Shown one piece after another: positions 2,502-11,903 of a stretch of DNA of 46,377 nt (positions are counted from its first letter, which is position 1; every line of letters starts with the position of its first letter). The notes under the pieces were generated by a model. That model saw only the letters and a program-made list of their open reading frames with translations. It ran no database searches and was not told where the DNA came from. The stretch lies in the NCBI GenBank assembly GCA_044226625.1, contig JBGAGQ010000054.1, forward strand, positions 1-46,377, read 5' to 3'. This stretch comes from Thermoanaerobaculia bacterium. Lineage in GTDB: Bacteria; Acidobacteriota; Thermoanaerobaculia; Multivoradales; UBA5704. A program made the position numbers and the translations under genes.

Positions 2502-3350
2502 ATGCTGGCCTGCTCCGTCCGCGCCTGCCGCGCGCCGCTCGCCCTCGATCCGGAGAGCGCCGGCCGGCGCGCCGTCTGCCCGAACGGCCATTCCTACGAC
2601 CGCGCTCGGAGCGGCTATTGGAACCTCCTCCAGCCGCAGGACCGCCGATCCGACGTCCCGGGCGACTCAAAGGACGCCGCCCGCGCCCGCCGGCTCCTCG
2701 CCGATCGCGGCCTCGATACGCCACTCTTTGCCGCCCTGGTGCCAATTCTCGACACCCCGCCGCTTCTCGAACGGGCGCCGATCCTCGACGTCGGCTGCGG
2801 TGAAGGGAGCTTCCTGGCATACCTCGGGAGACACCGAACGATCGAAGGCGTGGGAGTCGACCTCTCGACCCCGGCGATCGAGCTCGCCGCCCGCCGGGAC
2901 CCCCAGGCGATCTGGGTCGTGGGCAACGCCGACCGTCGGCTGCCGCTGGTCGACGCGGCATTCGTCCGCATCACCTCGCTCACCGCGCGGCGAAACCCCG
3001 AGGAGTTCCATCGGCTGCTCGCTCCGGACGGCCGGCTGGTGATCGCGCTACCCGGCCCCGACGACCTCCTGGAGCTGCGCGCCACCGCCCTCGGTCGCGC
3101 CGACCGACGGGAGCGGCTGGAGCCGGCGGTCGCCGAGCTGGCGCCGTTTTTCGAGCTGGAGGCGACTGAGAGGATCACCTGGACCGCGACGCTCGACGAG
3201 GAAGGGATCGCCGCCCTGCTCGCTTCGACCTACCGCGGCGGACGGACCGGGCGCGAGGGACGGGCGATGGCGCTCGCGGGAAGACCGATCACGTTCAGCC
3301 GAGACGTGGCACGACTCAGGACAATCGAGAATGGCGAATCAAGAATCTAG
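2502..3350 (+). CDS. rlmA: RlmA-like 23S rRNA (guanine-N1) methyltransferase
   Basis: N-terminal Zn-finger CxxxxC...CPNGHSYDRARSGYWNLL, PGDSK..ARRR and SAM-binding LDVGCGEG, as in the RlmA(I)/(II) family. Confidence 0.7.
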   Translation: MLACSVRACRAPLALDPESAGRRAVCPNGHSYDRARSGYWNLLQPQDRRSDVPGDSKDAARARRLLADRGLDTPLFAALVPILDTPPLLERAPILDVGCGEGSFLAYLGRHRTIEGVGVDLSTPAIELAARRDPQAIWVVGNADRRLPLVDAAFVRITSLTARRNPEEFHRLLAPDGRLVIALPGPDDLLELRATALGRADRRERLEPAVAELAPFFELEATERITWTATLDEEGIAALLASTYRGGRTGREGRAMALAGRPITFSRDVARLRTIENGESRI

Positions 3351-3376
3351 AATTCGTGATTCTCGATTCACCATTC
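3329..3376. terminator. Heptamer-based inverted repeat between convergent genes (probable bidirectional terminator)
   Basis: GAATGGCGAATCAAGAATC ... GATTCTCGATTCACCATTC form a 19-bp imperfect stem built from GAATNNN heptamers. Confidence 0.5.
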
Positions 3377-3380
3377 GTCA

Positions 3381-4427
3381 TTACTCCCAGATCGCCACCT
3401 CGAACCGGCCGGAGGCGTCCGCGGCGCCGCGGAACATGCCGCTCGAATTGAACACCAGGGCGATCCGGCCGTCCTTGCCCACGGCGATCACGCCGCCGTC
3501 GCCCGGCGCGAGCTCGCCGATGGTCTGCTTGGCCGCCTCTTCGAGCGACAGCCCTGCGAACTGCACCCGGGCAGCGATCGTCCGCGCGACCGTGTGGCGG
3601 ATGAACTGCTCCCCCACGCCCGTCGCCGAGACCGCGCACGAGCGGTCGTCGGCGTAGGTTCCGGCGCCGATCACCGGCACGTCGCCGATCCGGCCGAACC
3701 GCTTGTCGGTGAGCCCGCCGGTCGAGGTCGCCGCAGCCAGATGCCCATGGATGTCGAGCGCCACCGCGCCCACCGTGCCGAACTTCTTCGGCACGCTCCC
3801 CGCGGCCTCATCCTTCATCGCCTTCTGCCACTGGTCGTAGCGCTCCTGGACGAAGAAGTAGTCCGGACCGGCGCGCTCGATCTTGGGGTTGCCCGCCATT
3901 TCGTCCGCGAACTTCTCGGCTCCGGGACCAGCGAAGAAGACGTGCTTCGACTTCTCCATCACCAACCGGGCGAGCGAGATCGGATTCTTCACCGTCTTCA
4001 AGCCCGCGACCGAGCCGCAGCCGAGCGTCGAGCCGTCCATGATCGCCGCGTCCATCTCATGCTCGCCGTCGTGGGTGAACACCGCCCCCTTGCCGGCGTT
4101 GAACTTCGGATCGTTCTCGAGATCGCGCACCACCGCCTCGACCGTATCGACCGCCGAGGCGCCCTTCTCGAGCATCCCCTTGCCCAAGCTCAACGCCCGC
4201 TCGAGCGCGGCGAAATACTCTTTCTTCTTCTCCTCCGGCATCGACTTGTCGATCACCCCCGCGCCGCCGTGGATCGCGAGCGACCAGCTGGTGACGTCGC
4301 CTTTCGTCAGCACGACCTGGGCACCCGGGACTTCGGGTGCCTGGGCTTGCGCCACGGACGGAACGAACGGAACGGAAGCGGCGAACATCGCGAGGCCGAA
4401 GGCCCCGAAGCGGCGTAGCGGTCGCAT
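3381..4427 (-). CDS. iaaA: Isoaspartyl peptidase/L-asparaginase (Ntn hydrolase, asparaginase 2 family) with signal peptide
   Basis: LAIHGGAG, FNAGKGAV, EMDAAIMDG, autocleavage site GTVGAVA, ATSTGG, GRIGD and GGVIAV; hydrophobic N-terminal signal ending AQA. Confidence 0.93.
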   Translation of the reverse strand: MRPLRRFGAFGLAMFAASVPFVPSVAQAQAPEVPGAQVVLTKGDVTSWSLAIHGGAGVIDKSMPEEKKKEYFAALERALSLGKGMLEKGASAVDTVEAVVRDLENDPKFNAGKGAVFTHDGEHEMDAAIMDGSTLGCGSVAGLKTVKNPISLARLVMEKSKHVFFAGPGAEKFADEMAGNPKIERAGPDYFFVQERYDQWQKAMKDEAAGSVPKKFGTVGAVALDIHGHLAAATSTGGLTDKRFGRIGDVPVIGAGTYADDRSCAVSATGVGEQFIRHTVARTIAARVQFAGLSLEEAAKQTIGELAPGDGGVIAVGKDGRIALVFNSSGMFRGAADASGRFEVAIWE

Positions 4428-4488
4428 GTGGATCTCCTCGGGTCTCCTCGAAACGGCTCGAGGATGGTACCACCCGAGCGAGATCGGC

Positions 4489-6063
4489 CTACCCCGCCCG
4501 GCGCACCAACACGACCGTCTGGTCGTCGGCCTGGGGGTGTCCTTTGGCGAAGGCGCTCACGGCGAGGTCGATGGTGTGGATCAGCTCGGGCAGCGGAAGG
4601 TGCCGGTAGGCGGTGAGGATCTCGCCGAGGCGGCCCATGCCGAACTCTTCGTCGTCGATCGAGGTCGCCTCGGTGATGCCGTCGCTGTAGAGGCAGAGGA
4701 GATCGCCCGGGAGGAGGTCGGTGCGTTGGGAGGCGAAGCGGGCGGCGCGGATGAGGCCCAGCGGGACCCCTCCGGAGCCGAGCTCGTCGAGGGCGCCGTC
4801 GCGGCGGAGGACGAGCGCCGGGTTGTGCCCCGCGTTCAGGTAGTCGAGGGCTCCGGTGTTGGGATCGAGCTGGGCGAAGAAGAGGGTGACGAACTTGTTC
4901 GCCGTCGAGGACTCGGCGAGGTGGGTGTTCAGCCGTTCGAGGAAGCCCGTGCCCACACCGTCGCGCTCGGCGAGCAGGCGGAGCGCCGAATGGAGCGTCG
5001 AGACCAGCAGCGCCGCCGGCATCCCCTTGCCCGAGACGTCGCCGAGCGCGAGGCCGAAACGGCCGGCCCCGGCGTCGAGGAAGCCGTAGTAGTCGCCGCC
5101 GACCTGCGCCGCCGGGCGGTTCCAGCCGGCGATCTCGTAGCCGGCCAGCTCGGGCGAGCCCTTCGGAAGGATCTGCTTCTGGATCTCGGAGGCGAGGCTC
5201 ATCTCGCGCTCCAACCGCTCTTTCTCGAGCGCCTGGAGGTGGAGCCGGGCGTTTTCGAGCGCGATCGCCGCCTGGTTCGCGAACAGCCCCAGCGAGCGCC
5301 GGTCGGCAGCGCGGAACGGGCCCACGCCCCGCCGGCTCTCCTTGTCGCCGACGGCGATCAGACCGCGCGGGCTTCCTTCGATCTCGATACCAACACCGAG
5401 CAGGTGGCGCGCCCCGGGCAGGAGCGCCTCCGGCGGATCCCCTCCGGCGAGGAACCGGGCGAGCGCGGGATCGCCCGCCTCGAACCCCTCTTCCGCCTCG
5501 CCGCCGAAGGTGCGCTGCAGGCGGTAGCCCTCGGAGCCGAGCAGGTAGAGCGCGCCGCGGCGCGCGTCGAGCAGCATCACGGCGTGGAGCAGGATCTCCT
5601 CCGACAGCTGTTCGAGATCGAGGGTGCCGGCGACCTTCAGGCCGACGTCGTAGAGCGCCTCGAGCTCGACGCCGCGGTAGTTCGCCTGGAAGCGCTGCTC
5701 TTTCAGCTGGCGCAGCAGGCGGAGCGCCTTCGCCGCCTCCGAGATGAGCAGGGTCGAGGCGTCGGCGAGCGGCACGTCGCCGGGGGCGTAGATCAGCGCC
5801 CCGGCGGGAAGCCGCACGATCGCGAAGCCGCGGGCGAGCTCCGCCTGGGGCGCCGCGAAGTCGTAGATTTCGGGAAAGTCGCGCCCGCCGTGCGCACACT
5901 CGCGCTCGAGCAGGTTGCCGCGGTCGAGATAGAGCGCCGCGGCCTCGGCGTGATGCGCCTGGCACCAGTGGGCCAGCAGGCGGGAGAGGAGCGGGCGGGC
6001 GGAGCTCTCGGACTGACTGAGGACCAGCAGGTCTTCCCAGTCCTCGCGGGATAGAGAGGTCAC
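4489..6063 (-). CDS. rsbU: GAF-containing SpoIIE/RsbU-type PP2C serine phosphatase
   Basis: GAF region, then coiled coil ERLEREMSLASEIQKQILP, then PP2C motifs VGGDYY, GDVSGKG, NAGHNP, LYSDGITE and DDQT. Confidence 0.9.
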   Translation of the reverse strand: MTSLSREDWEDLLVLSQSESSARPLLSRLLAHWCQAHHAEAAALYLDRGNLLERECAHGGRDFPEIYDFAAPQAELARGFAIVRLPAGALIYAPGDVPLADASTLLISEAAKALRLLRQLKEQRFQANYRGVELEALYDVGLKVAGTLDLEQLSEEILLHAVMLLDARRGALYLLGSEGYRLQRTFGGEAEEGFEAGDPALARFLAGGDPPEALLPGARHLLGVGIEIEGSPRGLIAVGDKESRRGVGPFRAADRRSLGLFANQAAIALENARLHLQALEKERLEREMSLASEIQKQILPKGSPELAGYEIAGWNRPAAQVGGDYYGFLDAGAGRFGLALGDVSGKGMPAALLVSTLHSALRLLAERDGVGTGFLERLNTHLAESSTANKFVTLFFAQLDPNTGALDYLNAGHNPALVLRRDGALDELGSGGVPLGLIRAARFASQRTDLLPGDLLCLYSDGITEATSIDDEEFGMGRLGEILTAYRHLPLPELIHTIDLAVSAFAKGHPQADDQTVVLVRRAG

Positions 6064-6088
6064 GGCGGCGGTACCGCGGAGGGAACGG

Positions 6089-6445
6089 TCAGGCGGGGGC
6101 GCGGAGAGACGCGATCGCCTGCGTCTCGTCCGGGAAGATCTGGGCGTACTGCGACAGGCCCATGATTTCGAAGGTCTTCGCGATCGTCGGCGTCAGGCTG
6201 CAGAAGCCCAGCTTGCCCTCGATCTCGATCATCTTCTCGATGATCTCGATCAGGATCGAAATGCCGATCGAGTTGACGATCTTGGTGCCGTGCAGGTTGA
6301 GCAGCAGGACCTTTCGCCCCTCGTCGATCAGCTGGTAGGCCACCCGGGCGATCTCTTCGCCGCCCTGGTTGTTGATGTAGCCCTCCGTGTAGACGATCGC
6401 GAAGCCGTCCTGGCGATCGACGGTCACGCGCAAACTTTCGGTCAT
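6089..6445 (-). CDS. rsbV: STAS-domain anti-sigma factor antagonist (RsbV/SpoIIAA-like)
   Basis: Start MTESLRV at 6445 overlaps the rsbW stop (ATGA). VLLLNLHGTKIVNSIGISIL carries the phospho-acceptor Ser; FEIMGL at the C-terminus. Confidence 0.88.
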   Translation of the reverse strand: MTESLRVTVDRQDGFAIVYTEGYINNQGGEEIARVAYQLIDEGRKVLLLNLHGTKIVNSIGISILIEIIEKMIEIEGKLGFCSLTPTIAKTFEIMGLSQYAQIFPDETQAIASLRAPA

Positions 6446-6945
6446 CGACGTACCTCTCCACCTTCCGCGTTCTCGGCCGAACCCTCCGCGGATCCTTCGG
6501 CACCGGCCGCCCGCTTCTTGCTCATCACCACCGTGGTGCCTCCGCCCGCGCTCGAATCGATCTCGACGCTGTCCATCAGACCTTGGATGATCTCCAAGCC
6601 CCAGCCGCGCTTGTTCTCGGCCTTGAGCTTGCTCGCGATCCGGGGCTTCTCGCGCCGATCGGGCGAGAAACCGATTCCCGTGTCGCGCACCGAGATCCGC
6701 AAAAGCTCCGGCTCGCCCCCGCCCAAGACCTCGAAGGTCATGTAGACCTTCCGGTCCGGCGCGTGGCTGTGCTCGAACGCGTTGATGCACGCCTCGATCA
6801 CCGCCATGCGAACTTCGTCGATTCTATCCGGAGTCATCTGCATGTACTCGGCCATGGCGGTCGCAGTCTTGCTCGCCGCGACTTCCATGTCGGGGAGCAT
6901 CGGGAGCGTCAGTGTGACCTCCCTCAATACCGCGTTGCCGGTCAT
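6442..6945 (-). CDS. rsbW: Anti-sigma factor serine kinase (RsbW/SpoIIAB-like, HATPase_c)
   Basis: AVIEACINAFEH (N box), VRDTGIGF (G1), RGWGLEII (G2) and GTTVVMSK. Confidence 0.9.
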   Translation of the reverse strand: MTGNAVLREVTLTLPMLPDMEVAASKTATAMAEYMQMTPDRIDEVRMAVIEACINAFEHSHAPDRKVYMTFEVLGGGEPELLRISVRDTGIGFSPDRREKPRIASKLKAENKRGWGLEIIQGLMDSVEIDSSAGGGTTVVMSKKRAAGAEGSAEGSAENAEGGEVRR

Positions 6946-6971
6946 GGTTCGAGCGTCCTGGTTCCGCGGCC

Positions 6972-7127
6972 TTAGAAGGTCAGGTAGAGCTCGAGGGCGT
7001 AGATGACGATCGGGTGCACCGCATCCTGGGCTAGAAGCGCTAGGAAACTCGCACAGGTCACCACCGACAGGATCACCGAGCTCGAAACGCGGGGAAGAGC
7101 AATGGACTTGCGGACGGAGTCTAGCAT
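6972..7127 (-). CDS. Unannotated 51-aa hydrophobic small protein, first gene of the rsbWVU operon
   Basis: Hand translation: MLDSVRKSIALPRVSSSVILSVVTCASFLALLAQDAVHPIVIYALELYLTF*. GAGGAG RBS lies 9 nt upstream. The ORF fills the gap between the sigma54 promoter and rsbW. Confidence 0.65.
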   Translation of the reverse strand: MLDSVRKSIALPRVSSSVILSVVTCASFLALLAQDAVHPIVIYALELYLTF

Positions 7128-7162
7128 GTCGGGCGTCTCCTCATTCTCGCCGCCCTCCTACC

Positions 7163-7178
7163 GCAAGGGTGTTGCCAA
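7163..7178 (-). promoter_or_regulatory. Sigma54 (-24/-12) promoter
   Basis: Minus strand reads TTGGCAACACCCTTGC, with exact GG-N10-GC spacing and a close match to the TGGCAC-N5-TTGC consensus; 35 nt upstream of the small ORF start. Confidence 0.8.
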
Positions 7179-7360
7179 CCCCGGGAAAGCCTCGGCCCAC
7201 CGCGCGCAAGTGCCTCGAATCACGTCGTTTATCCCGATCGCCAAACGTTCGGCGCGGAGCGAACGCTGGACTGCACCGCGACATTTCGCCTCACGCTCTC
7301 CGTTCTCGACTTCGGGACCGCCGCGGAAACGCCATACCGATGGGGCATGCCGCTCGGACC

Positions 7361-7394
7361 GAGACAATATGTCCCAGAGAGTCATTTTGTCGCA
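7361..7394. promoter_or_regulatory. Tandem palindromic upstream activator sequences (putative bEBP binding sites)
   Basis: GAGACAATATGTCCCA (7361-7376) and GAGTCATTTTGTCGCA (7379-7394) are two related GACA-N3-TGTC-type dyads about 200 bp upstream of the sigma54 promoter; a weaker copy is at 7278-7293. Confidence 0.55.
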
Positions 7395-7410
7395 GGCGTC
7401 CCGCTTCACG

Positions 7411-8937
7411 TCAGAACCCTTTGCGCTGCAAGGTTTTGCGGTCGATGCCGAGGATCTTCGCCGCCTCGGTCTTGTTCCCCTGGACGCTTTCGAGCACGTG
7501 GGCGATATAGCGGCGCTCCAAGCTCGCGAGGTCGAGTGCCGGCGGCTCCTCCGCGCCGCCCTCTCCCGGCGCGTCCGCTGCCGTCGGGGCGGAGGCGGCG
7601 GACGAAGCCGAGGCGCCGATCAGGGAGCGCACCAGCTCGCCGTCGACCTCGTCCTCGGCGAGCGAGGCCGCCCCCTCGACCAGGTTCTGCAGCTCGCGCA
7701 CGTTGCCCGGGTAGTCGTAGGCCATCATCCGTGCCAACGCCTCGGCGCGCAGCCCGGGCGCCGGGATCTCCTCCCGGCGGCAGAACTCTTCCAGGAAATG
7801 GCGCACGAGATGCGGGATGTCGGCCTTCCGCTCGCGCAACGGCGGCAGCTCCACCTCGACGCCTTTCAGGCGGTAATAGAGATCCTCGCGGAACTTCCCC
7901 TCGCGGACCCGCCGCTCGAGATCCTGATGGGTGGCCGCGACCAGCCGCACGTCGACCGGAATCGGCCGACGGCCGCCCAGGCGCACCACCTCGCGCTCCT
8001 GGAGCACGCGGAGCAGCTTCGCCTGGAGGGAGGGGTCCATGTCGCCGATCTCGTCGAGGAACAGCGTGCCCCCGTCGGCGAGCTCGAACTTGCCCGGCCG
8101 GGCCTGCACCCCCGTCGCCACCCCGCCCTCGATGCCGAACAGCTCGCTTTCGAGCAGCGCCTCGGGGAGCGCCGCGCAGTTCAGCGCGATCAGCGCCCCG
8201 GTGCGCCGCGAGCGGAGGTGGAGCAGCTTCGCGATCAGCTCTTTGCCCGTGCCGCTCTCGCCGCGGACGAGGACGGAGACCCCGCGCGGCGCCACCCGCT
8301 CGACGATGTCGAGCACCCTGCGCATCGCCGGAGTCGAGGCGATCACCCGATGGCCGTCGACCTCGTCGACCAGGCGCCCCTTGAGCGCCTTGTTCTCCTC
8401 CTCGAGCTTCTCGCGCTGGGTCTCCAGCCGCTCGACCTGCCGCGCCGCGTCGAGCGCGATCCCGGCGAGCGTGCCGACCGAATCGAGGAAACGCCGGTCG
8501 TCTTCCGAGAACGACGCCTCGGAATCGCCGCGCGCCTCCTTGTCCAGGATCGCGAGATAGCCGAGGAAGGTGCCGCGATAGACCAGCGGCGTCGCCACCA
8601 GGTCGTGGAAGCGCCGGCCGGCGAGCTCCCCCTCGCTCTGCACCAGCAGGCGCCCGGCGGCGAGCAGCTCGCGCCAGAGCGGCGCGGCGAGCAGCGCCGT
8701 CCCCGAGACCGCCGGCCCGGTCCAGCCCACCGTCGCCACCCCGCGCGGCCCGCCGTAGGCGTCGCGAGTGACCGCCACCGCGGCGCCGGGGTCGAGCACC
8801 GCGCACACCCGCTCGAGCAGCTCGTCGACCAGCTCCTGCTCGCCGCGCTGCGCCTGGAGCGCCAGCGCGAGATCGTAGAGGGTCTCGAGCTGGAGGATCC
8901 GGCGGCGCTCGGCGAGAGAGGAGTCGGCTCGAGGCAT
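7411..8937 (-). CDS. GAF-domain sigma54-dependent Fis-family transcriptional activator (bEBP)
   Basis: Walker [15 protein letters not shown], Walker [28 protein letters not shown] and [20 protein letters not shown]. The GAFTGA loop reads GVATGV. Start chosen at 8937 (MPRADS), 7 nt after a TAAAAT hexamer; the ORF track start is 9018. Confidence 0.92.
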
Positions 8938-9035
8938 CGGGAACATTTTATCCAAGGGGATGCGGGCCGCTGGCGACCCGCACCTGAGGTTTGGTACCTT
9001 AGGCCGATTTCTCGCCATCCGCGCAAGGATTTCCG

Positions 9036-11903
9036 ATGACTCGTGTCAACGCTTGTACGATCGTGTCGAACAACTACCTGGGCATGGCCCGGGTCTTCGC
9101 CGAGTCGTACAAACGTCATCATCCGGGGGCCGAAGTGTACGTCTGCTTCGCCGACCAGCCGGACCCTTCGATCCATTACGGACAGATGCCGTTCGTGCCG
9201 ATCTTCGCGGCCGAGCTGGGGATCCCGGCGTTCGCGAACTTCGCGTTCCGTTACGACATCCTGGAGCTGAACACCGCCGTCAAGCCGTACCTGCTCGAGC
9301 ATCTGCGGACCAAGCACGGCCTCGACCGGATCTTCTATTTCGATCCCGACATCCTCGTGCTCGACTCGGTCGAGCCGCTCGAACGGCTGCTCGACGACCA
9401 TCCGGCGGTGCTGCTGCCCCACATCACCCACGGGCTCGACGACGGCCTGATTCCGCCCGAGCGGATGATCTTGCTCGCCGGCGTCTACAACCTCGGATTC
9501 CTCGGCCTGCGGCTCGACGCCTCGACCGCCGAGTTCCTCTCCTGGTGGCAGGACCGCCTCTACCGTTTCTGCGTCAACGACATCCACAACGGGGTGTTCG
9601 TCGACCAGTCATGGATGGACCTCGCCCCCGCGTTCCTCGACGACGTGGCGGTCGTGCGCGATCCCATCTACAACGTCGCTTACTGGAACCTCGCGCAACG
9701 CGCGACGGCGCGCGACGGCGACCGCGTAAAGGTCGACGGGCGGCCGATCGCCTTCTTCCATTTCAGCGGCATCGAGTTCGACAACCTCGAGGTGATCAGC
9801 AAACACCAGAACCGCGTCTCGCTCACCTCCCGGCCGGAGCTGCGGCCGCTGTTCGAGCGCTATCGCCAGCTGGTGCGCGAGGCCGGACATCCCCAGTTCG
9901 TCGGCATCCCGTACGGCTTTCGCCAATTCACCGGCACCGACGTGACCATCCCCTGGGTCGCGCGGCGCCTGCTCCAGCGCATGGATCCCAAGGGGAGGCG
10001 CTGGCCGAATCCGTTCGACCTCTACAACGAAGACAGCTTCCTCGCCTTCCTGGTCGAGCCGGTCCACTACCCCGGCGGCGTGCTCACCCGCGCTGCGCTC
10101 GCCCTCTGGGAGCTGCGCGAAGACCTGGTGCGCGCCTTCCCGGAGGTCTGCGGCCGCGATCTCAAGCGCTTCGCCGACTGGCTGAAGCTCCACGGCGAAG
10201 GGGTGCGCGCGGGGCTCCATCCGATCTTCCTCGAGCCGGTCGGGCCGAAGGACGGCCATCGTTACCGCCGCTCGACCTTCGGGCCGCAGCTGCACCCTTA
10301 CGAGACGATCGCCACCGAGCGCGCGGGCGAGCTGCTCGCCAAGGTCGACCTGTCGCGCCCCGAGTCCATGACCGCCTGGCTCAACGAGCCGATCCCCGGC
10401 GCGGCGGAGCGAACGCCGTGGATCACCCGGCTCGCCCTGCTGCTCTGGCGCATCCGCCCCGACGTCCAGCGCAGCTTCCCCGATCCGCTGGAGGCCGATC
10501 AGGCCGCCTACGCCGACTGGTTCTGCCGCCACGCCCCGAGCGAGTTCCACCTCCACCCCGACCTCGTCGAGCCGGTTTTGAAGACGCTGCCGCGCAAGAC
10601 CCGCATGGCGTTGAGAGTCCGCCGCCACGCCGCCGAGGCGCGCCCCGCCCGGCTGGTCGCCGCGCCGGAGGCGCACGACGCCGCGGGCGCCCCGGAGCCC
10701 AGCGCGGCGCACCCGGTCGCGAGACCGAAAACGCTCGCCGCTCCGCTCGAGGACGGCGCTGGCCGCCCGCTCGCGGTGAACCTCGCCGGCTACTTCGGCA
10801 TGGACACCGGCGTCGGCGAGATCGCACGCGGCAGCCTCGTCGCGCTGGCGGCGGCCGGGATCGAGACCTTGCCGGTGCCGCTCGACCAGGACCTGCAGAG
10901 CCGGATGATCGACGGGCGGCTCTGGCTCGACGACGGCGCGCCGCACCCCCTCACGATCCTCCACGCCAACGCGGACGAGACGCCGCGCGCGCTTTCGATG
11001 ATGCCGATCGCGGGCGCCGCGGGCGGCTTCAAGGTCGGCTACTGGTTCTGGGAGCTGTCGCACTTTCCGCTCGCGCTCACCGACCGTTTCGGCCATCTCG
11101 ACGAAGTCTGGGCGCCGAGCCGGTTCTGCGAGGCGAGCTTCGCGCCGGTCGCGACCGTACCGGTCCGCTACGTGCCGCCCTGCGTGCCCGCGCCCGAGCC
11201 CCAGCGCGAGCCGATCGCGGCGCTGCGCAGCCGGCTCGGCCTCGAGCCCGGCCGCTTCACCTTCTTCTTCGCTTTCGACGTCCTTTCCGTCCCCGAGCGC
11301 AAGAACCCGTTCGCGGCGATCGAGGCGGTGCGGCGGCTCGCCCGGCGGACCCGCCGCCCGTTCGGCCTCGTGCTCAAAGTCTCGCGCGGCAAATACGACG
11401 GCGCCCTGGTCGCCCGGCTGCGCGAGACCGCGCGCGGGCTGCCGATCGAGATCCAGACCGCCCCGGCGTCCCGCGCTCAGATCGAATCCTGGATCGCCGC
11501 CTGCGACGCGAACCTCTCGCTCCATCGCTCCGAAGGGCTCGGCCTGCTGCCGATCGAGACGCTCTACGCCGGCAAGCCCGTGGTGGCGACCGGCTACGGC
11601 GGCGTCACCGATTTCCTCGACGAGACGACCGGATACCCGGTCCATCACCATCTGGTCCGCCTGGAGCGCGACCACTCCCCTTATCCCGCGGGGGCCGTCT
11701 GGGCCGAGCCCGATCTCGACCATGCGGTCGACCAGATGCTCCGCGTGCTCGAGCATCCCGACGAGGCCGCCGCGCGCACGGCCACCGGCAAAGCCCGGAT
11801 CGAGGCGCTCTACGGCACCGAGGCCGCCTCCGCGCGCTTCGCCACCGAGGTCCGGCGGATCTACGCCCAGCTCCACGCCGAACGGTCCCCCGCGCGAGGC
11901 TGA
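9036..11903 (+). CDS. Multidomain glycosyltransferase (N-terminal GT-A-like module plus C-terminal GT4/GT-B)
   Basis: N-terminus has ELNTAVKP, YFDPDI (DxD), GVYNLGF, VDQSW, YNVAYWNL and FFHFSG. C-terminus has GYWFWEL, DEVWAPS, ERKNP, SLHRSEGLGL and GKPVVATGYGG. Confidence 0.88.
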   Translation: MTRVNACTIVSNNYLGMARVFAESYKRHHPGAEVYVCFADQPDPSIHYGQMPFVPIFAAELGIPAFANFAFRYDILELNTAVKPYLLEHLRTKHGLDRIFYFDPDILVLDSVEPLERLLDDHPAVLLPHITHGLDDGLIPPERMILLAGVYNLGFLGLRLDASTAEFLSWWQDRLYRFCVNDIHNGVFVDQSWMDLAPAFLDDVAVVRDPIYNVAYWNLAQRATARDGDRVKVDGRPIAFFHFSGIEFDNLEVISKHQNRVSLTSRPELRPLFERYRQLVREAGHPQFVGIPYGFRQFTGTDVTIPWVARRLLQRMDPKGRRWPNPFDLYNEDSFLAFLVEPVHYPGGVLTRAALALWELREDLVRAFPEVCGRDLKRFADWLKLHGEGVRAGLHPIFLEPVGPKDGHRYRRSTFGPQLHPYETIATERAGELLAKVDLSRPESMTAWLNEPIPGAAERTPWITRLALLLWRIRPDVQRSFPDPLEADQAAYADWFCRHAPSEFHLHPDLVEPVLKTLPRKTRMALRVRRHAAEARPARLVAAPEAHDAAGAPEPSAAHPVARPKTLAAPLEDGAGRPLAVNLAGYFGMDTGVGEIARGSLVALAAAGIETLPVPLDQDLQSRMIDGRLWLDDGAPHPLTILHANADETPRALSMMPIAGAAGGFKVGYWFWELSHFPLALTDRFGHLDEVWAPSRFCEASFAPVATVPVRYVPPCVPAPEPQREPIAALRSRLGLEPGRFTFFFAFDVLSVPERKNPFAAIEAVRRLARRTRRPFGLVLKVSRGKYDGALVARLRETARGLPIEIQTAPASRAQIESWIAACDANLSLHRSEGLGLLPIETLYAGKPVVATGYGGVTDFLDETTGYPVHHHLVRLERDHSPYPAGAVWAEPDLDHAVDQMLRVLEHPDEAAARTATGKARIEALYGTEAASARFATEVRRIYAQLHAERSPARG

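Follow-up and report, generated by a model that had tools for sequence, protein, structure and literature searches.

The 46,377-nt stretch of Thermoanaerobaculia bacterium contig JBGAGQ010000054.1 (contig C47 within genome G000), referred to below as the window, carries a cluster of genes for a bacterial enhancer-binding protein (bEBP), a 51-aa microprotein and the three proteins of an RsbW-RsbV-RsbU-type partner switch. The reading preferred here, at a probability of roughly 0.6, is that of a class-wide sigma54-dependent operon encoding a two-input partner-switching module, which acts on a partner other than a SigB- or SigF-type sigma factor and has its STAS protein as the preferred output. 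The genome is a metagenome-assembled genome (MAG) of 6.6 Mb, with a completeness of 97.9% and a contamination of 5.5%. The parts of the cluster, including putative upstream activating sequence (UAS) dyads scored with a position weight matrix (PWM), are as follows.

7411-9018, minus strand: bEBP gene; longest open reading frame (ORF), 535 aa, with GAF, Sigma54_activat, AAA_lid and HTH_8 domains (Pfam)
7379-7393: UAS dyad 1 (distal), GCGACAAAATGACTC on the minus strand, beginning 18 nt past the bEBP stop; PWM 20.2
7361-7375: UAS dyad 2 (distal), GGGACATATTGTCTC on the minus strand, 18 bp centre-to-centre with dyad 1; PWM 22.0
7278-7292: UAS dyad 3 (proximal), right half TGTCGC, left half degenerate; PWM 15.9
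7162-7177, minus strand: predicted sigma54 -24/-12 promoter, TGGCAACACCCTTGCG, with GG at 7176-7175 and GC at 7164-7163
6972-7127, minus strand: 51-aa microprotein ORF, first cistron, with a GAGGAG Shine-Dalgarno sequence at 7137-7142
6442-6945, minus strand: rsbW, RsbW/SpoIIAB-like serine kinase (HATPase_c_2, PF13581, 9.4e-23)
6089-6445, minus strand: rsbV, RsbV-like single-domain STAS protein (PF01740)
4489-6063, minus strand: rsbU, RsbU-like phosphatase with GAF and SpoIIE/PP2C domains (PF07228, 1.4e-45)

All of these parts lie on the minus strand, and the domain matches and coordinates agree with the first-pass annotation of this DNA, which had described a GAF-bEBP gene, a small ORF and tightly coupled rsbW, rsbV and rsbU genes on one strand. 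The stop of rsbW and the start of rsbV overlap as ATGA, the gaps between the small ORF and rsbW and between rsbV and rsbU are 26 and 25 nt, respectively, and a spacer of 283 nt separates the bEBP stop from the 51-aa ORF.

The predicted promoter has two mismatches to TGGCAC-N5-TTGCW, and its GG and GC doublets stand 10 nt apart. This bare pattern, with two mismatches allowed, occurs in the window about as often as expected by chance (10 observed against 9.18 expected), but the promoter is taken as real because it is conserved across loci. The same-order comparison covered 20 loci from 20 genomes, counts of 21 including the window, and the wider comparison covered 8 loci from other orders of the class Thermoanaerobaculia (Acidobacteriota). 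A relaxed -24/-12 pattern was found in all 21 same-order loci and the strict form TGGCA-N6-TTGC in 19 of them, about 31-55 nt 5' of the small-ORF ATG in every locus, as measured after correction of two start codons. Seven of the 8 other-order loci have a GG-N10-GC element with no more than two mismatches 34-49 nt 5' of the small ORF. The near-consensus sigma54 promoter recognised in the first pass is thus borne out by conservation rather than by its pattern. Transcription would start near 7151, and rpoN is present in the genome (Sigma54_DBD match of 222.9 bits on contig C76).

The dyads are copies of the 15-bp palindrome G-N-G-R-C-A-WWW-T-G-Y-C-N-C and lie about 115, 198 and 216 nt 5' of the promoter, inside the 80-250 nt range of UASs. 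Two of them, just past the bEBP stop, had already been pointed out in the first pass; both were recovered, together with the third at 7278-7292. The distal dyads recur in related loci at about -265 and about -247 from the small-ORF ATG, the proximal dyad lies at about -145 to -180 in most of these loci, and dyads at fixed positions are found also in five loci without an adjacent bEBP gene. In a genome scan with a PWM built from 54 sites and a hit threshold of at least 11 bits, no place in the 6.6 Mb other than this trio had at least two hits within 150 bp, and dyad 2 was the best-scoring site genome-wide. Because the genome holds a single dyad cluster, and because the dyads and a bEBP orthologue are both kept in genomes that have the bEBP gene at another place, this bEBP appears to serve as the activator of this operon alone, with putative binding at the dyads.

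The synteny survey that had been proposed for bEBP, small ORF and rsbWVU found the cluster conserved. All 20 same-order loci have the small ORF, rsbW and rsbV in synteny, with rsbU adjacent in 19 and the bEBP gene in 15; in each of the five cases of a non-adjacent bEBP, an orthologue with 68-77% identity is encoded elsewhere in the genome. The arrangement bEBP-rsbW-rsbV-rsbU is present in all 8 other-order loci. Mean identity to the window among the same-order loci is highest for RsbV (76.2%), followed by the bEBP (68.7%), RsbW (63.4%), RsbU (57.6%) and the microprotein (55.1%). Outside the class, seven rsbW-rsbV-rsbU loci were found, all without an adjacent bEBP gene and without such a small ORF, and since these relatives have neither, an older three-gene switch appears to have gained the microprotein and its link to the bEBP at the level of the class.

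The bEBP has Sigma54_activat (PF00158, 3.8e-62) and HTH_8 (PF02954, 3.2e-11) domains, and its translation contains GESGTGKE and LFLDEIG. Its orthologues are 57-87% identical, and their alignments begin at about residue 28, which makes the Met at 8946 or 8937 the probable true start. In G018 the orthologue (C21:102917-104393, locus L187) is split into two overlapping frames covering residues 1-259 and 252-509, which points to a frameshift or an assembly error. The L1 loop of the bEBP, the part of such proteins that contacts sigma54, reads GVATGV and not GAFTGA, as it does in all 27 orthologues readable at the site (window 7966-8325), whereas about 19 other bEBPs of the genome retain G[AS]FTGA-like loops. 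One FHA-domain bEBP paralogue (contig C58:132071-132427; locus L196:6005-7789) also has GVATGV.

This substitution raises the question of whether the adjacent bEBP is the activator at all. If GVATGV could not engage sigma54, another bEBP might drive the promoter, for which the genome's 23 strong Sigma54_activat matches would offer alternative activators, or the bEBP might act at a sigma70 promoter. NtrX and TyrR are bEBP homologues that lack the GAFTGA motif and work with sigma70. VpsR is reported to be another. This explanation is nevertheless judged quite improbable, as the GVATGV loop is invariant in orthologues whose genes stand alongside a conserved -24/-12 promoter and dyads, and a simple scan of 3200-9200 found no sigma70-type promoter and no terminator on the minus strand (one promoter-like and one terminator-like site were found on the plus strand, both within chance). 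It is also countered by DVUA0100 of D. vulgaris, a one-component bEBP with the same L1 variant, which a comparative genomic study reports as probably functional, predicting that the protein activates sigma54 promoters in front of type III secretion genes (PMC4641369). DVUA0100 was the only bEBP with this loop returned by a full-text literature search for GVATGV; the comparison with it covers the motif, and it differs in that its predicted regulon is plasmid type III secretion and its N-terminal region is unassigned and not called GAF. The class-wide co-conservation of GVATGV with the -24/-12 promoter provides a second, independent hint of a working variant.

A single pairwise comparison of the GAF region of the bEBP with that of RsbU gave 31% identity over 172 aa (E 9e-6), and genome-wide tblastn at E<=0.01 found no link between them, so that these data only weakly suggest close paralogues sensing one ligand. 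The similarity bears on an idea put forward in the first pass, in which the switch feeds back on its own promoter through binding of RsbW or RsbV to the bEBP. Such a loop would be in keeping with the linkage or co-presence of bEBP and operon in all genomes checked, and partner-regulated bEBPs exist, PspA-PspF being an example mentioned in PMC4641369. It is, however, highly improbable: the GAF similarity lacks significance at genome scale, the bEBP gene is unlinked in 5 of the 20 same-order genomes, the seven rsbW-rsbV-rsbU loci outside the class have no adjacent bEBP, which argues that the switch predates the bEBP link, and nothing in the analysis points to the switch acting on the bEBP.

Structures of SpoIIAB and RsbW were matched by the RsbW profile along the whole length of the profile (1.8e-15 to 8e-15), and the invariant residues E51, N55, D88-x-G-x-G92 and G114-x-G116 of RsbW belong to its ATP-binding motifs (N-box, G1 and G2). 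Scores against the equivalog models are below cut-off for RsbW (TIGR01925 spIIAB, 62.6 against 135 bits; TIGR01924 and NF003144 RsbW, 40.1 against 155 and 48.2 against 145) and for RsbV (TIGR00377, 41.9 against 53.45 bits), indicating that these proteins belong to the domain families and not to the named Bacillus families. RsbV is the most conserved component, with a mean column identity of 72% in an alignment of 21 sequences, two of them from outside the class. Its Ser59, in the motif NSIG, is invariant in these 21 sequences, and its counterpart in the alignment with the SpoIIAA structure 1TH8_B is the first Ser of DSSG, the phospho-serine position. RsbU consists of residues 1-125 without a domain match, a GAF domain at 149-271 and then the PP2C (SpoIIE) domain, whose match spans positions 2-191 of the 192 in the profile; Pfam gave no match to the RsbT-binding RsbU_N domain in this protein.

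Related domains occur elsewhere. A second RsbW-RsbV pair lies in the same genome at C86:174998-175833, where the adjacent genes encode an Rce1-like protease and a polyprenyl synthetase but no sigma factor, and two STAS genes are grouped with two HATPase_c_2 genes at C13:66630-69927 in a cluster of stressosome-like appearance. RsbW-like domains scoring about 90-102 bits with the A1 profile are found within frames of 725-823 aa in one Acidobacteriota family (for example in G208, G226, G256 and G305), which suggests fused multi-domain kinase forms.

Switches of the RsbUVW type normally control a sigma70-family factor such as SigB or SigF, which is often encoded alongside. The absence of a cognate sigma factor from the window, reported in the first pass, holds and extends to the whole genome and to most relatives. 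The genome has 45 Sigma70_r2 matches, all of them on contigs other than C47, so that the window has no sigma70-family gene, and RpoD is the only protein of the genome with Sigma70_r3. The SigBFG model likewise scored highest on RpoD, whose 133.5 bits fall short of the cut-off of 234, revealing no sigma factor of the SigB, SigF or SigG type. RpoD is the sole region-3 sigma factor in 32 of 41 genomes of the order, and in the remaining 9 the extra region-3 matches are mostly in RpoD-like frames of ~570-720 aa, with three shorter ones of 269-389 aa. On these three grounds, a SigB- or SigF-type partner is very unlikely as the conserved target, and RpoD and about 44 ECF-type (extracytoplasmic function) sigma factors are the possible ones.

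A canonical anti-sigma switch with a remote sigma factor, in which RsbW sequesters an ECF sigma factor or RpoD and RsbV releases it, is the most probable of the alternatives, though not a likely one. Its attraction lies in the full-length alignment of RsbW to SpoIIAB and RsbW, whose structures have been solved with sigma F and sigma B, and in the supply of sigma factors, the 45 Sigma70_r2 matches being mostly ECF-sized. The Chlamydia Rsb system is, moreover, reported to act on the housekeeping sigma factor in the section of PMC8256260 that describes it. Against these points, the genome has no group-3 sigma factor and RpoD stands alone in region 3 in most relatives, while no sigma gene turned up in the 28 synteny loci with the query set used, which did not include an explicit search for sigma genes. 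RsbV is also more conserved than RsbW, which would be unexpected if RsbW and a sigma factor formed the key interface, and a lead among the ECF sigma factors failed.

That lead concerned a region of contig C76 (153522-157216) with three tandem paralogous ECF sigma genes and a zinc-finger anti-sigma-like gene (154048-155394), in which three single UAS-like PWM hits accompany a sigma54-like promoter. This promoter (TGGCAGGAGACTTGC at 156457) lies ahead of the third ECF gene and recurs in the same-genus loci L188 and L189. Control of this cluster by the bEBP was dropped as a candidate on the absence of the UAS hits from 8 orthologous loci, and the ECF family itself was not found (E<=1e-20) in 4 of 24 operon-carrying relatives.

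For the first cistron, comparison with the nearest locus gives proportions of nonsynonymous and synonymous differences (pN and pS) of 0.04 and 0.36, with means of 0.30 and 0.62 over 78 pairs, which indicates that the small ORF is a real gene under purifying selection. The microprotein has a hydrophobic helix at residues 16-33, a D-x-x-H-P turn and a C-terminal helix ending in LxLYL(S/T)F, with a Kyte-Doolittle maximum of 2.14 in a 19-residue window. An AlphaFold2 model from a 20-row alignment places helices at 3-7, 16-33 and 37-50 in a helical hairpin, with a mean pLDDT of 68.6, which represents moderate confidence; the product is predicted to be a hydrophobic helical hairpin and a membrane protein. 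At the corresponding position, the 8 other-order loci carry a small ORF that has diverged in sequence but retains the layout, with its hydrophobic helix, its turn at a Pro and the pattern L-x-L-(F/L)-L-x-F at the C-terminus. Searches of Pfam and NCBIfam gave no match for the 51-aa ORF, and the ESM Atlas no usable one. The family profile retrieved 567 clusters from public data, all annotated as 'hypothetical protein', none with a Pfam domain and all of those with a named source from Thermoanaerobaculia or Acidobacteriota. In a phylum sample, which includes a genome flagged as unpublished (G063), the profile matched all 12 same-order genomes and none of 289 others.

These properties allow a second reading of the output, in which the microprotein takes the place of the sigma factor and, bound by RsbW or by unphosphorylated RsbV, toggles a membrane activity or the localisation of the module, making the output post-transcriptional. 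This is considered unlikely, and a co-fold of RsbW (alignment A1) with the microprotein (alignment A2) gave a score of 0.00 (mark 0.32), which is evidence neither way. If true, it would mean a sigma-independent, sigma54-induced switch in Thermoanaerobaculia, in addition to a bEBP subfamily contacting sigma54 via GVATGV.

In the preferred reading, with the STAS protein as output, a ligand sensed by the GAF domain of the bEBP would lead to assembly on the dyads and opening of the sigma54 promoter, so that the whole switch would be made on demand only. RsbW would phosphorylate RsbV at Ser59, and the GAF-PP2C phosphatase, responding to a second cytoplasmic signal, would dephosphorylate it. Unphosphorylated RsbV would then either be the output itself or free the other partner of RsbW. 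The former is preferred, with the highly conserved STAS protein acting in the manner of SypA and RbaV and the membrane microprotein serving as a partner or tether of the module.

Several points weigh against this reading. The GVATGV loop replaces the canonical Phe of GAFTGA, the loss of which should impair contact with sigma54 by E. coli standards. The full-length SpoIIAB-like architecture of RsbW leaves an anti-sigma role towards RpoD or the ~44 ECF sigma factors possible. The PWM used for the genome scan was partly trained on the window's own sites (2 of 54), and the transcription start, the binding and the phosphorylation are all deduced from sequence. As the genome is a MAG, a sigma gene could possibly be missing from the assembly, a concern countered by the order-wide sigma count. 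Contigs from RNA libraries (three metatranscriptome runs of one study) match the operon at 99-100% identity, covering the small ORF (6954-7107), rsbW (6319-6716 and 6511-6827) and rsbV (5996-6277), but they may include DNA carry-over and hold no start information, and so are weak support for expression of the operon. None of these contigs covers 7119-7520, a gap to which no weight is given.

The module shares with RsbU-RsbV-RsbW-SigB and SpoIIE-SpoIIAA-SpoIIAB-SigF of B. subtilis the combination of a HATPase_c_2 kinase, a STAS phospho-Ser protein and a PP2C phosphatase. It differs from them in having no SigB/F/G-type sigma factor in locus or genome, in its W-V-U gene order, in a phosphatase with a GAF domain in place of RsbU_N, in scores below the NCBIfam equivalog cut-offs, in its sigma54 promoter and bEBP, and in the extra microprotein as first cistron. 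In V. fischeri, SypG is a sigma54-dependent bEBP. This locus-encoded regulator induces the syp genes, switch included, and the STAS protein SypA is the output, according to the part of PMC3610818 dealing with the locus. A STAS protein together with kinase and phosphatase functions in a locus induced by its own activator is thus common to both systems. However, SypE is a kinase-REC-PP2C fusion whereas Pfam matches here place kinase and phosphatase in separate genes with no REC domain, the activator here is a one-component GAF-bEBP and not a response regulator, and the operon contains only the switch and the microprotein, with no polysaccharide genes.

Partner switches without SigB have been described in other Gram-negative bacteria. 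For RbaV-RbaW-RbaY of R. capsulatus no cognate sigma factor could be found, and RbaV was proposed as the determinant of output (PMC3999984); this system belongs to a different phylum and its expression is CtrA-dependent, with no sigma54/bEBP control described in that paper, and it has no microprotein. The Chlamydia RsbU-RsbV1/V2-RsbW system, with its housekeeping sigma target, and Bordetella BtrU-BtrV-BtrW, which targets type III secretion control (PMC8256260), have phosphatases with other sensor domains, and again the relevant passages describe no sigma54/bEBP control and no microprotein. Because sigma-less switches are known from RbaVWY (PMC3999984) and from BtrUVW, Chlamydia Rsb and SypA/SypE (PMC8256260), the kind of system is not new. 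The first-pass interpretation, which had suggested a feedback loop not recognised as described, is upheld for the conserved sigma54/bEBP-driven operon without a classical sigma factor but finds no support for feedback on the bEBP, and the switch has precedents in kind. A literature search found no paper describing this module in Thermoanaerobaculia, and the main text of a sigma54 regulon survey (PMC12316311) contains none of the terms 'Acidobacteri', 'RsbW', 'SpoIIE' and 'partner'. What is new is the combination of a dedicated GVATGV GAF-bEBP with a single-operon regulon, an obligate microprotein and a GAF-PP2C second input in a class lacking group-3 sigma factors.

Partner switches are textbook sigma-factor control, and the present case bears on how those without a sigma factor deliver their output. 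It is clean, compact and class-wide, comprising one dedicated activator, one promoter and four genes in a genome without a SigB-type sigma factor. It comes from an uncultivated soil and water lineage of a phylum which, though abundant in soil and sediment, is barely studied, and adds two concrete subjects for study, namely an unannotated microprotein family always found with the switch and a bEBP subfamily in which the GAFTGA Phe, supposedly essential, is replaced even though the protein is tied to a conserved sigma54 promoter. Partner switching would have wider uses than those now known if its output here is the microprotein or the STAS protein; if RsbW binds an ECF sigma factor or RpoD, the system would be an ordinary one under unusual transcriptional control.

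An Rfam scan of 4300-9200 at E<=0.1 gave no match. On the 3' side of the operon, 61 nt from rsbU, lies a gene for a secreted-looking asparaginase-family protein (3381-4427, minus strand), and about half of the same-order loci have this gene in synteny. The gene at 9036-11903 (plus strand), which runs divergently from that of the bEBP, encodes 955 aa with a GT4 glycosyltransferase domain at the C-terminus and is conserved in this position only within the genus.

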